A stretch of DNA of 64,000 nt from positions 5,022,001 through 5,086,000 of the forward strand of contig OX597826.1 of the NCBI GenBank assembly GCA_951406725.2. Direction: 5' to 3'. Shown here piece by piece: positions 4,667-48,266 of this stretch. The stretch is from Octopus vulgaris. Taxonomy: Eukaryota. The notes beneath the pieces are model-generated. The model made no database searches. It was not told the origin of the DNA and worked only from the letters and a program-made list of their open reading frames with translations. The first letter of the stretch is position 1. Every line of letters begins with the position of its first letter. Position numbers and translations under genes: made by a program.

Positions 4667-5097
4667 TTTCAAATTTTGTCACGAGGCCAGCAATGTCAGA
4701 GTAGGTGGGTGTTAGTCGATTACGTCACCCCCAGCGTTCAACTGGAACTTATCTCATCAATCCCGAATGTATCTAACACAAAGTCGCGCTCGACGGAATT
4801 TGAACTCAGAACGCAAACACGGACGAAATGCCGTAAATCATTTCGCCCGGTGTGCTAATGATTCTTATTTCTTTATTGCCCACAAGGGGCTAAACATAGA
4901 GGAGACAAACGAGGACAGACATAGGTATTAAGTCGATTACATCGACCCCAGTGCGTAGCTGGTACTTAATTTGTCGACCCCGAAAGGATGAAAGGCAAAG
5001 TGGACCTCGGCAGAATTTCAACTCAGAATGTAGCGGCAGACGAAATGCCGCTAAGCATTTCGCCCGGGGCGCTAACGATTATGTCTGCTCACCGCCT
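4667..5097 (-). mobile_element. Compound Deu-like SINE: young copy (~4863-5097) fused to the head of an older-tail copy (4667-~4862)
   Basis: Two successive copies of the core; junction gctaatgattct|tatttctttattgcccacaagggg. Confidence 0.9.
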
Positions 5098-5124
5098 ACT
5101 TGTATTTCAATATTAGAACCATAA

Positions 5125-5213
5125 TTACGTTCTGAGTTCAAATTCTGCCGAGGTCGACTTTCATCCTTTCGGGGTCCATAAATTAAGAGCAATTACGTAC
5201 TTGAGTAGAGAAG
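5125..5213 (+). mobile_element. Truncated Deu-like SINE insertion with 16-bp TSD
   Basis: AATATTAGAACCATAA is directly repeated at 5109-5124 and 5214-5229 around tacgttctgagttcaaattctgccgaggtcgac... Confidence 0.85.
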
Positions 5214-7396
5214 AATATTAGAACCATAACTCAAGGGGCTTACAGAAGGATCTTAAAATATTACGCACAGATGTGTCCTCCTATAAACGAATACTTATTT
5301 TTAACATACAAGTAATTACGAGTTTAATACAGAAAACTTATATATTGTAGTCTGAGAATTATTACATTCATAATCTGAGTTAATATTAGTTTGTCAACGT
5401 ATTCTTCAGCATTTGTATAAAAATTCTATGCATCTTGAACACGGGTTTTGTTATGGGGCCAAGTTTTACTTTCTGTAACTTGTCTCCATTTCATAAGCTG
5501 AAGTCTGTATTGTGATGTATTTTGATTTGTGTCTTGAGAGAATACTGAATTTCTGACACACACACACTTACACACAATTATATATATATATATATATATA
5601 TATATATATATATATATATATATATATATATATATATATATATATATATATACACGCTCTCTCTCACATTCGTGAATACACGCTTATACACACACACATA
5701 CACACATATATATGTGCACATGCTTATATATACATTTAATTATATAATGATATATATGTACATATACAAAATATGTATATCTATTCATAAAAATATATAT
5801 ATATATATATATATATGTATGTATGCATGTATATATTTTTATAAATATATGTGTGTGTATATGTATATATATATATATATATATATATATATACATTTGT
5901 ATAAGTATATGTGCGTGTATATATGTACATATATATGTGTGTTTATATATATATATCTGTACACAAACACACACATATATATGATCATAACAATGAAATG
6001 TACGAAACTAAAAAAACAAACAAATCATTTAATCAAAATCAAAATAATAAACAAAATATCAATGTCAGTAGAAAAATTAGAATAAACAGACGAGATAGAG
6101 AGATAGATAGAGAGAGAGAGAGATAGAGAGAAAGAGGAGAGGTAAGTGGGAGGAGTGAGTTGAAAGAGAGTAGAATAATGAAGGCAACCTTCCAGAGATT
6201 CTTTGAAAAAACTCAAGGATGAAAAAATATCAAAAAATTTTTTCATGACCTTCTATGATTATAAGTAAAATTCTTCTAGGGTTTGGCATATTTTTCAAGA
6301 ACGAATAATGAAAAGAAGAGAAAAAAGAAACTGCTTAAACTAGAGAGCTGTTATGTGTGTTTGCATATGTATACATACGTAGGTATGAGTATATACGTAC
6401 ATAATGTACACACATATGAGTATGAATATATATATGTATATATATATATATGAACACACACACACACATATATGGTGTGTATATGTATATATATAATAGT
6501 ATTTATGTGTATATATATATATATATATATATATATATATATATATATATATACACATTTGTATTTATGTCTGTATATGAAGAGAAAGAGAGGCAGATTT
6601 AGACGTATGCATGTGTATGAATATATGGATATCTATAATTTGTCAGCGTGCATCCACACTCACACAAATATGCATTGTGTGTTTATATGCTTATTAATAA
6701 TATACAAGATTTATATAATGATGGAGCAAAAAAATAAGTAGAGAAAGTATATATATATATATATATATATATATATATATATATACATGTACCTATGAAT
6801 GTGTATGTATATCTATATATGAGAGAGCGAGGTGGGGTGAGAAAAGAAAGAGAGAGATCATATATATGTACATGGAGAGATGAGAAATGAGAACTTGCTA
6901 TGACCTTTATCGAATGCCTGTTGCTTTGGTGGGATACTTCGACATAAGATAAACGTATCTTGGCATCTTTAAAATTTTCCTTCCAATAGTTGACAGATCA
7001 AAAGAAACGTTTCACATCTGATGTGAATGATATTTCCATACGTTCATATTTTCAGATTCATCCAGAAAGATATTCTGAACTATTCAGTTGCATACGCTTT
7101 ATGACAAAAGGTTTATTACGTATGCTTTATTCTTGTTTTACGTACTCTTACACATTCTGTGTATATGTTTTTCACACGTTTTCATATAGCACACGTTATT
7201 TATTACTCTCGTAAGCCTGAACGTTGTAAACAACATTATTCCAGCGTATGGTTACATGTTGTATATATGGATATGTTGACGTTGCCGCTCACAATATCCG
7301 ATATTATCTACGTAAGTATTATGTGATACGTATTATTTCAACGCGCGTACTCGAACCTTTCATCGATTCCATATTTCGTCTCACAGTACATATTAG

Positions 7397-7742
7397 TTTC
7401 AAATTTTGGTACAAGGCCAGCAAAGTCGACCTCGGCGGAATTTTGGTACAAGGTCGGCAAAGTCGGCCTCGGTGAAATTTGAACTCAGAACGTAGCGGTA
7501 GACGTAATACCTATTTCTTTACTACCCACAAGGGGCTAAACACAGAGGGGACAAACAAGGACAGACAAACAGATTAAGTCGATTACATCGACCCCAGTGC
7601 GTAACTGGTACTTAATTTATCGACCCCGAAAGGATGAAAGGCAAAGTCGACATCGGCGGAATTTGAACTCAGAACGCAGCGGCAGACGAAATACCGCTTA
7701 GCATTTCGGCCGGCGTACCAATGTTTCTGCCAGCTCGCCGCC
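7397..7742 (-). mobile_element. Compound Deu-like SINE (young full copy fused to an older copy's head)
   Basis: The minus strand has the head GGCGGCGAGCTGGCAGAAAC, a B-box and the core; junction at ~7510 gtaatacc|tatttctttactaccc. Confidence 0.9.
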
Positions 7743-45331: not shown

Positions 45332-45380
45332 TCTATGTAGATGATGAAGCATAGCAATGTTGAAACACGTGTCATACAGA
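45332..45380 (+). ncRNA. Minimal type I hammerhead with a C3-to-A core mutation (probably inactive)
   Basis: tctatgt-ag-ATGATGA-AGCAT-agca-ATGTT-GAAA-C-acgt-GTC-atacaga; palindromic stem III ACACGTGT. Confidence 0.6.
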
Positions 45381-47384
45381 CTTATGGTATCATCCTTGGT
45401 CCAACTTCATTTTTTAAAAATTTTGTGTGCACATTGTCTATGAGGACAATCTCTCTCCTGAGAGAGTTTCCTTAGTGAATAAAGTCCATTCTACCTTTGA
45501 TTATACACGCCTATATTTTAATCATCAATAGTTAGTACACCTCTAACAAACACACACAATCAAACACGCACTCATATTAATATATATATATTATTTCATG
45601 TATAGAATAACAATAAGAGCTACAGATAATTTCTTGCTATGAAGACACGTGGCTAGGTAGAAGTTTATAATGCGATTTGTGTCTCCAAGCAATCTTGAGA
45701 CTCTGAACCTTTGAAAATCAAGAGGCCGGTACATGAGAGGCCAGCGTTCTATTTTCAAATAGAACAGGTCATGTGCTCAGAACTTGAATCTGTCTAGCCA
45801 GGTTTCTTCGTGACAAGAAACCATAAGTAGCTCACACCTCCATACCTTAAATGATATTTATCGCTCCCTGACTGAAGGGAGTAAATTTTTGTTGATCTTA
45901 CCTTAACGAAACTGTAAACTATGAATATGCATATGTATTGGATCATCCCATTAATAATGCAGTTATATATATATAGTTGTTCATGTTATTGATGTGGTAT
46001 ATCAGTGCGATACATTGAAATTATTGTAAGACTTAAATAAAGGTGCTTGAAATTCATTTTATTCTCTAATAGATATTTTCAATGTCCTAACAACCGGTTA
46101 ATCACATATCAGTTATTATCCTGCGACATACGACCATAAGCATTCCATCCGTTCCCTGCCTATCCTTCTTTATATATATATATATATATATATATATATA
46201 TATATATATATATATATATAATGCACAGCAAGCTTTTCGACAAACGCTCACGAGGAGCCCATGGAATGCTGTGCATTTTGTTGGAGGATTAAGTTCCTGG
46301 ATATATATATATATATATATATGTGTGTGTGTGTGTGTGAGTATATATATATATATATATACCTTATTGAAGTGTATATAAAACACACTTTTGTTTCCTA
46401 GTAACTGTCCCATAAATTACCCTGTAAATTTGGGCTTAATGCATATTTATTTCCTGAATATGCGCAGCAGAAATTTGGGTCTAATGTGTTTGTTCGCCTT
46501 TTATGTAAGTAAATACGGTATTATAACAGACATCCTAGCCATGACCATCCTGTTCAATGTAGTTTCTCCATTTTCAAGTGAGTAGAGTGTGATTGGAGGG
46601 ATATTTTTTTCTGTGATGTCTATTGAGTCAGTTGACTCTGCAATGGATTCTCTATCGACTGTAAGTGTTAAATGTCTCATCTACTGAGAATAGTAGTTAT
46701 CGGTTTCACTTTACACAGACATTAGTCGGCACAATTTCGAAACCATTTTTCGATTCCGCAATCTTGACCAATATTGCTTTTCGAATACTTCTTGCGCATA
46801 CACAACTTAAACACTTATTCTGATAATTCAGAAAGTAGAACAATAATATTATCTAATTTGTGAATTTCCCTTTGGTCTTTTATGAAATTTTCTGGAGATC
46901 TCTGTAAAAGCCATCCACAGGAGACATATAATTTGCATACAAAACTAAAGTGATAAATGTTTTATCGGCCTTCATGTGTATGCAACTGTTGACAATAATA
47001 AAACGTTAAAGTTCGCAGTAATATCAAGTTACTGCGACTCTCGACAGTTATATTTCCTTACCATCAACTATAATATTTAAAACGGAATGTTAGCAGTAAA
47101 CTTTATATGCATACCACTCTCCTGAGTATATGCTATTAATTTTTAGTCACGTTCTGGTGACCGCAGTATAGCACGAGGCAAAAATCATAGCGAGTAGTTA
47201 AAAGTAAGACATACTTTCGTTTTCTTTCAGTATATTTGCTTCGGCAGCAGAAAGAGCGGATCTCATCTCCTACGTATGAGTTTACTAATGGTTTCTCAAT
47301 ATATTACTGCATTCACAGACTCTTAGTACACTCACAGATTTATGAAAATTCTTATATATTTTTTAAATTCATATTCCAATATAA

Positions 47385-47770
47385 GCGCAGGTATGGCTGT
47401 GTGGTTGAGAAGTTTGTTTTCCGAGCAGTACCCTAACCAAGCGTCATTTCTTGCAGTCCCAACCCAACTAAAACCTTGTGAGTGGATTTGGTAGACGGAA
47501 GCTGCAAAAACCTAGTGCTATATAGATGTGCGCGTGCATGTACTTTGATATCATGTGATGGTTGTAAACGACTGTCACCATTATACCAGTGGTGGTGTTC
47601 GTTTCCAGTTTCCCACGAGTCATATCCAGCTATGGGGAAGTATTACCGCGATTGGAAGCAAGTGGTGTTTGAAGACAAGAAGGTTCTCTGACCGAGAAAG
47701 AAATCTGTGTCAACGAATTATGTCTGTCCCATGCAAGCATGGAAAAGTGGTCGTTAAATGGTGATGATGG
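47385..47770 (+). mobile_element. Decayed CORE-like SINE variant
   Basis: gcgcaggtatggctgtgtggttgag...gtgagtggatttggtagacggaa; divergent 3' half ending in (gat)n. Confidence 0.6.
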
Positions 47771-47817
47771 CTCCACTATAAAAAAAATGGGTCACTTCAG
47801 AAAGTAGTGCTCTTCTT

Positions 47818-48266
47818 ATTTCTTTACTGCCCATAAAGGGCTACATACAGAAGGGACAAACAAGGCCAGACAAACGGATTAAGTCGATTACGTCGACCCC
47901 AGTGCGTAACTGGTACTTAATTTATCGACTCCGAAAGGATGAAAGGCAAAGTCGACCTCGGCGGAATTTAAATTCAGAACGTAACGGCAGACGAAATACC
48001 GCTAAGCATTTTATCCGGCGTGCTAACGGTTCTTATTTCTTTACTACTCGCAAGGGGCTAAACGCAGAGAGGACAAACAAGGATAGACAAACGGATTAAG
48101 TCAATTATATCGACACCAGTGCGTAACTGGTACTTAATTTATCGACCCCGAAACGATGAAGGGCAAAGTCGACCTCGGCGGATTTTGAACTCAGAACGTA
48201 ACGGCAGACGAAATACCGCTAAGCATTTCGCCCGGTGTGTTAACGTTTCTGCCAGCTCGCCGCCTT
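47818..48266 (-). mobile_element. Dimeric young Deu-like SINE inside one 14-bp TSD
   Basis: GTAGTGCTCTTCTT at 47804-47817 and 48267-48280; junction gctaacggttct|tatttctttac at ~48033. Confidence 0.93.

Follow-up and report, generated by a model that had tools for sequence, protein, structure and literature searches.

Tails of one SINE family in Octopus vulgaris join fixed positions in the heads of other SINEs, pointing to target-selective retrotransposition

A window of 64,000 nucleotides (nt) of the Octopus vulgaris genome (assembly GCA_951406725.2, contig OX597826.1, positions 5,022,001 to 5,086,000 of the forward strand) contains copies of a 232-nt family of short interspersed elements (SINEs), lying mainly on the minus strand, which we delineated by blastn with the copy at 48033-48266(-) and by scanning with a hidden Markov model (HMM). 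The family model begins AAGGCGGCGAGCTGG and its tail terminates in GGGTAGTAAAGAAATA. At five loci of the window a full unit abuts directly on a second one in which the first 49 or the first 16 model positions are missing; the upstream unit is always complete and tailed, and all of these arrays except the trimer starting at 44775 lie on the minus strand (Table 1). A preliminary description of this DNA had listed seven such tail-to-head junctions, six of which, at five loci, were reproduced by blastn and the HMM scan. At these six the complete tail, ending ...AAAGAAATA, meets a following copy that starts with GGTATTT (model position 50) or AGAAAC (model position 17). A single target-site duplication (TSD) does bracket both units of the dimer at 47818-48266, as had been claimed.

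Table 1. SINE units, junctions and duplications in the window (window coordinates; model positions refer to the 232-nt family model)
Feature	Position	Strand	Model positions	Remarks
Junctions of tail with GGTATT	7511/7513, 32410/32412, 44976/44978, 45160/45162		50	
Junctions of tail with AGAA(A/C/T)C	4865/4867, 48033/48035		17	
Dimer, upstream full unit	48035..48266	-	1-232	Tail end ...AAAGAAATA
Dimer, downstream unit	47818..48033	-	17-232	Starts AGAACCGTTAGC; likely the resident copy that was hit
TSD copy adjoining dimer head	48267..48280			14 nt, GTAGTGCTCTTCTT
TSD, second copy, adjoining downstream-unit tail	47804..47817			GTAGTGCTCTTCTT
Trimer, unit 1	44775..44976	+	2-232	Internal deletion
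Trimer, unit 2	44978..45160	+	50-232	Junction of tail with GGTATTT
Trimer, unit 3	45162..45227	+	50-115	Other-family type at positions 63/65; tail joined to GGTATTTTG with TTTT run
Upstream unit	32412..32642	-	2-232	Head (3-44) 21% diverged, body 6%; likely a chimera of resident head and new body
Downstream older unit	32298..32410	-	50-161	Another family; tail joined to GGTATTT
Upstream full unit	7513..7744	-	1-232	
Downstream piece of short older SINE	7456..7511	-	50-105	Tail joined to GGTATTA; SINE extends to ~7397 with a different tail
Upstream unit	4867..5097	-	2-232	GGGCAAT tail variant; head 17% diverged, body 9%
Downstream old unit	4691..4865	-	17-189	Another family; starts AGAATCATTAGC; own tail to ~4667
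Two other-family units (13265-13449; 13155-13246)	13155..13449	-	second unit from 52	Judged outside the phenomenon
Free-standing same-family copy, for comparison	43400..43628	-		GGGCAAT tail, AAGAAG-type duplication

The head end of the 4691-5097 array faces, at a distance of 27 nt, an inverted SINE fragment (model 65-157) at window 5124-5209 (+), the two forming a head-to-head inverted pair.

The extent of the phenomenon was assessed in a sample of the same 2.8-Gb assembly, comprising 160 10-kb stretches taken at fixed coordinates plus the window (1,664,000 bases), which was scanned with a profile derived from 41 full copies; counts given below refer to this sample unless stated otherwise, and loci outside the window are designated by L numbers. 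The 486 matches to the 232-nt model represent a short, dispersed, non-coding element with TSDs, which were found in 18 of 38 free copies and in 2% of shuffled controls. They fall into 319 single units, 45 dimers, 14 trimers, 2 tetramers, 3 pentamers and 2 hexamers, and an 80-nt probe spanning one junction has at least 40 full-length matches over many contigs of the assembly. Throughout the genome, junctions fall at two fixed positions, 50 and 17. The histogram of tail-junction positions is far from uniform: among 93 junctions behind the family's tail, 61 start at position 50 (binomial P for a single position = 3e-115), with 8 at 51 and 2 each at 52, 47 and 54, and a second group of 14 starts at 16-18, with one more at 13. 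The remaining three, scored as starts at 66, are position-50 junctions that carry an internal deletion. Units starting at position 50 have the family's tail before them in practically all cases, and such a unit follows 77 of 166 family tails but 2 of 216 other-family tails (p=5e-31). Among first or solo units, starts at 50 and at 17 account for 2 of 385 each. When a unit does lie close behind a tail of another family (26 of the 216), it starts at 1-6 in 19 cases and at 47-54 in 2. Full-length units directly behind such tails, e.g. L060 3317, L117 4748 and L149 6542, are ordinary tail-adjacent insertions into A/T-rich ends. Because other-family tails so rarely precede starts at 47-54, we consider the junction at 13246, which had been counted as a further case of the position-50 site, to be ordinary; its tail belongs to another family, and its kind occurs at chance level in the sample.

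Nested insertions reveal that resident copies are entered at a defined position of their heads, as the preliminary description had proposed. Four insertions in the unbiased sample keep the displaced head (L103, L016, L091 and L154) and have the structures 2-62/3-232/50-120, 6-64/2-232/51-169, 12-62/3-232/50-174 and 2-51/5-232/50-232; in the first three the duplicated segment begins at position 50 and bears the target's own variants, e.g. TTTTG. A fifth case (L009) is an insertion inside a junction unit, and nested and resolved forms number 5 and 77, respectively. The displaced 5' part of the head, described as missing, is thus indeed absent from the window loci but retained at four loci of the sample. 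A whole-genome search for the exact pattern of positions 50-62, 0-5 nt and a head start gave 44 matches, with none for the reversed control. In 20 stretches fetched from these matches, 15 full units were inspected, 14 of which have TSDs of 12-22 nt (13-16 nt in 12) starting at position 50 (GGTATTT), and variants private to the target are present in both TSD copies at L165 (GCA) and L175 (GAAT). About half of the single loci are insertions into former junction units, in the order tail, 50-65, full unit, position 50 onward. The TSDs therefore show insertion into resident copies for position 50: genomic SINE DNA is a real target, and the nick lies at 49/50. At L180 (G000:C10:83804040-83804925) a 22-nt duplication takes in the last six tail bases of the preceding unit, and the nick can therefore shift upstream of position 50.

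Head-only tandem arrays (model 2-64/65, period 64-65 nt) are found as well, with up to 8 units and identical junctions at L161 1975-2620, and others at L162 404-533, L163 451-646, L164 321-515 and L173. Some of them continue with a full unit and 50-232 units; stacked nested insertions or slippage were considered for these. Circular RNA or tRNA-half intermediates, an idea taken from the 64-nt head-only arrays and from the position of a hairpin loop in the head (described below), were dropped, as no data bear on them.

The ages of the joined parts indicate which of them was resident. Thirty-one pairs have a downstream unit from another family; compared at sites common to both family models, their upstream unit retains more CpG dinucleotides (0.76 versus 0.63, p=0.003) and is less diverged at non-CpG sites (5.9% versus 12.3%, p=1e-4). 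The head of the first unit does not share the youth of its body: in 20 mixed arrays its CpG retention is 0.62, equal to the level of the downstream unit, against 0.79 in its own body (solos 0.74 and 0.73; p=0.006). Likewise, in nine arrays with old downstream units, a set to which the window loci at 32412 and 4867 belong, the first-unit head is 19.3% and the body 8.0% diverged (10.0% and 6.7% in 40 solos; p=0.0025), and of 13 arrays with at least three units, 11 show lower divergence in the first body than in the last one (p=0.011). Older downstream units and old heads therefore fit a resident that keeps its head and the part from position 50 to its end and receives new 50-232 segments, whereas simultaneous insertion predicts none of these differences. 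Retention of the resident head, part of the original proposal, fits with heads as decayed as the downstream unit. The associated idea that promoters are renewed is unsupported, because the old head, with the A-box side, is likely the part retained, and added units lack positions 1-49. Insertion of a 5'-truncated copy behind a resident tail was rejected: downstream units are older, not younger, and single copies truncated at 50 or 17 are absent.

The choice of target depends on the tail subfamily. The 166 family tails are followed by a position-50 unit in 77 cases (including the 3 with deletions), a position-17 unit in 14, a flank beginning GGTA in 24, a flank beginning AAGA or AGAA in 14, (TA)n in 13 and other sequence in 24. 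Tails were typed by one column, which is T in GGGTAGT/GGGTAAT and C in GGGCAAT/GGGCAGT. Of 102 T-type tails, 81 stand at GGTA-type and 9 at AAGA-type sites, whereas of 40 C-type tails 5 stand at GGTA-type (p=1.4e-13) and 16 at AAGA-type sites. Where TSDs are readable, GGTA(T) belongs to the target: free-standing copies with GGGTAGT or GGGTAAT tails land at GGTA(T) sites that are already present in the empty-site copy of the TSD, and among duplication-verified copies the TSD begins GGT in 6 of 11 T-type and 0 of 5 C-type cases. In GGTA flanks outside SINEs the match to positions 50-60 reaches at least 6 nt in 12 of 24, compared with 9% of 7,763 background GGTA sites (p=3e-7), although some of the long matches may be extensions borne by the element rather than target sequence. 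The sample holds 2,453 GGTAT sites, of which 150 are at position 50 of SINE heads or units; 74 of these 150 carry an insertion. A target that is specific to the subfamily and scales with match length, presumably under one enzyme, is therefore best accommodated by pairing with a subfamily-specific RNA 3' end, and we infer that the target is probably chosen in this way. Priming by RNA-DNA homology, as originally suggested, thus gains in that tail subfamily predicts target and generic targets extend the match to 50-60, a support that is indirect. In the search for subfamily markers, no column besides positions 45 and 50 was diagnostic for head subtype, and linkage between head and tail markers in 40 solos was too weak after multiple testing.

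Position 50 is also a structural boundary of the head. Positions 33-45 and 50-62 fold as a conserved 13-base-pair hairpin with its loop at 46-49 (window example, 48205-48234), and the closing pair 45:50, which shows covariation, is paired in 92% of 305 heads (TG 152, TA 68, GC 26 and CG 11). The 3' arm opens with position 50 and coincides with the nested TSD, and the family-diagnostic T/C at position 52 corresponds to a G-U to G-C change within the hairpin. In 10 of 73 junction units, e.g. window 45162-45170, the unit begins with GGTATTTTG, a CpG change from TTTCG, whose TTTT run a few bases behind the upstream tail is a possible stop for RNA polymerase III (Pol III). Description of the head as tRNA-derived is no more than a label: ARAGORN predicted 0 tRNA genes in the window, and Rfam gave no match at E<=1 in 47700-48400. 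As read from the model, GAGTTCAAATTCC occupies approximately positions 72-84 and is a candidate internal Pol III box B. The last ~48 nt of the SINE tail are common to the 3' end of an L1-like long interspersed element (LINE), 8 copies of which occur in the sample, all ending in (ATCT)n or a close variant. One of these, a seemingly intact copy at L159 6332-9781 (-) with its 3' end near 5957, has an open frame of 1149 amino acids with Exo_endo_phos, RVT_1 and zf-RVT domains, and the nearest solved relative of its protein is human L1 ORF2p (E=2e-53). This LINE is likely to supply the partner enzyme of the SINE family.

We regard it as probable, with moderate confidence, that position 50 of resident heads receives new copies from one SINE subfamily, and position 17 mostly those from a sister subfamily; a short extension at the 3' end of the SINE RNA likely guides them by pairing with the nicked target. 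Source copies would be those that stand ahead of a position-50 or position-17 junction, and their Pol III transcripts would end ...AAAUA-GGUAUUU(CG/UU) or ...AAAUA-AGAAAC, the predicted RNA 3' ends being ...AAAUAGGUAUUU(U) in the subfamily with the GGGTAGT tail and ...AAAUAAGAAAC in that with the GGGCAAT tail. The extension would pair with the 3' end of the nicked bottom strand, on the same principle as L1 poly(A) with T-tracts or R2 read-through RNA with 28S; SINE heads would offer the longest match and so receive about half of all insertions, and every hit would recreate the same 3' flank, making the specificity heritable. At the other end, a top-strand overhang of 13-16 nt (positions 50-62/65) would anneal to the same positions of the new complementary DNA (cDNA), which match it in full, and prime the second strand, and the product would consist of the resident head 1-~60 joined to new ~60-232 and followed by the resident from 50 to its end, with no visible duplication. 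Failed annealing (about 1 in 15) would leave the classical nested form with a displaced head. Resolution of the 5' end by annealing of the overhang would be one route; later deletion between two adjacent head copies could give the same product, and arrays may grow in addition through read-through multimer RNAs and unequal crossover. A wider formulation, which we offer more tentatively, is that the specificity is written in the SINE RNA and not in the protein: copies would co-transcribe the start of their insertion site as a guide, such that a lineage once inserted into the hairpin loop of a SINE head would have turned into a heritable homing element for SINE heads in general, and its sister would have gained another guide (position 17). 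This would amount to a natural and reprogrammable form of RNA-guided, target-primed retrotransposition.

Several observations weigh against insertion into resident heads as the sole origin of the arrays, and some of them favour formation in a single event, in which reverse transcriptase would copy a SINE RNA to position 50 or 17, the cDNA end ...CGAAATACC would pair with GGUAUUU of another or the same RNA, and synthesis would continue, the units being inserted together. Same-family pairs show no age difference, either in divergence (6.3% versus 7.1%, n=48, p=0.66) or in CpG retention (0.82 versus 0.79, n=41, p=0.43), as joint insertion would have it. One TSD (at least 10 nt) surrounds the entire array in 7 of the 45 arrays tested, including the 47804-48280 locus of the window and the hexamer at L079 7011, the units of which differ by 8-14%. 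Array sizes drop roughly geometrically, as the counts given above show. One young subtype is over-represented among other-family downstream units (8/32 versus 3/46, p=0.04), which could reflect co-activity rather than resident status. One orthologous locus, the L073 dimer (465-866), was informative about the state before integration. In a related species (organism C, ~5.5% word-level divergence) a 1,245-nt contig joins L073 458 to 911 with ~20 nt between, and the dimer's site is therefore empty there rather than occupied by the resident unit only; two species closer than organism C have SINE edges at L073 459-910, so that the family was still active after the split. The single TSDs and the empty L073 site fit one-event insertion as well as two successive hits. 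Three further points count against the proposed guide and annealing steps. Variants at positions 50-62 are common to the downstream and upstream unit in 5 of 39 cases, which is the background level, where annealing predicts an excess; most of these variants, however, lie at a CpG that decays after insertion. Junction units have GG at 50-51 in 61 of 62 cases, as against 132 of 294 heads, an excess that could reflect target choice or RNA templating. Finally, the guide is a putative one, deduced from DNA. Nevertheless, template switching fails to account for other-family downstream units that are older than their upstream partners, for first-unit heads older than their bodies and for the rarity of single copies truncated at 50 (2/385), while nested copies with TSDs made from the target identify genomic DNA as the target and the same subfamily favours GGTA in non-SINE DNA. 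We thus think it unlikely, though worth retaining in part, that single events explain the junctions at large.

A second alternative holds that the junctions arose once or a few times in multimeric source genes, whose read-through multimers retrotranspose and are then expanded at the DNA level by unequal crossover or slippage. The uniform junction sequence, the link between junction type and tail variant and the 8 identical junctions of the head-only arrays of 64-65 nt at L161 would follow naturally, and the consensus model lacks a TTTT run, so that Pol III could read through. Among neighbouring pairs, 9 of 48 differ by at most 5% while sharing differences from the family model; the other 39 are as different as unrelated copies, such that a satellite-like likeness of neighbours is confined to these 9 pairs and holds for the 64-nt head-only arrays. 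Downstream partners moreover come from several families and ages, upstream and downstream subtypes combine freely, and nested copies with TSDs and older heads are left unexplained. The rejection of a single dimeric master element in the preliminary description therefore stands, and we judge a multimeric origin to be quite improbable as a general account. Because of the equal ages, the single TSDs, the empty L073 site, the 9 similar pairs and the head-only arrays, we retain template switching and multimer RNA or crossover as contributors, mainly to same-family arrays. It is very improbable that the units are independent neighbours trimmed through microhomology-mediated deletion, or truncated copies that came to lie near tails by chance, since a short AGAA overlap at the position-17 junction and the attraction of full-length copies to other-family tails (19 of 26 adjacent cases) are outweighed by a tail-GGTATT junction without microhomology, by the extreme position specificity of the junction histogram and by the absence of single copies truncated at 50 or 17.

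Insertion into resident heads would have consequences beyond the family itself. Approximately 46% of subfamily copies (77/166 tails) lie inside other SINEs, and SINEs make up 11.6% of the genome in a published octopus annotation (PMC13282606), although species may differ; with SINEs at about a tenth of the genome, one mechanism therefore shapes a sizeable part of it. Annotation should not treat array units that lack positions 1-49 as 5'-truncated insertions of the ordinary kind, and age estimates would be distorted by first units, which are likely chimeric. If the guide is as proposed, a few bases at an RNA 3' end could steer an L1-like enzyme to a chosen sequence, SINE subfamilies could change their target with the protein unchanged, and satellite-looking SINE arrays would have a simple origin.

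The phenomenon represents target-selective retrotransposition in a form new to the literature searched: within the parts of the publications covered, including PMC13282606 and PMC9795677, arrays of this kind were not found described. Dimeric and chimeric SINEs formed by template switching (PMC3272025) share with the octopus arrays the head-to-tail joining of SINE parts within one duplication; those, however, are single founding events that were then amplified, whereas here the joining recurs at many loci between partners that differ in family and age, and nested copies reveal DNA targets. CanSINE elements in cats also target existing SINE loci and build tandem arrays, at sites that are AT-rich and TTAAAA-like (PMC4084570), while in the octopus the site is an internal head position at the boundary of a hairpin loop, positions 1-49 are missing from the downstream unit, and the resident likely keeps its head, ahead of the new copy. 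Under the "snap-velcro" rule described for L1, priming is controlled by how well the last 4 plus 6 bases of the target pair with the end of the RNA (PMC3649969). The octopus system resembles this in its L1-like partner LINE and in a nearly indispensable set of four bases (GGTA), beyond which more matches help; in contrast, pairing would involve a specific sequence other than poly(A), varying by SINE subfamily, and the best targets are the heads of the SINEs themselves. In R2Ol, pairing of read-through RNA with 28S raised precise insertion from 12% to 96-98% (PMC6530143), and in both systems the following insertion would be directed by a stretch of the earlier target that was transcribed along with the element and forms the RNA 3' end. 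R2, however, combines a restriction-like endonuclease with a single-copy-type site in rDNA, whereas the octopus system would employ an AP-type endonuclease and a non-autonomous SINE as the mobile unit, with a putative RNA guide, and it targets repeats that, by extrapolation from the sample, number several hundred thousand copies. The model proposed here is thus a combination of two known principles, the end-pairing of L1 and the read-through pairing of R2Ol.

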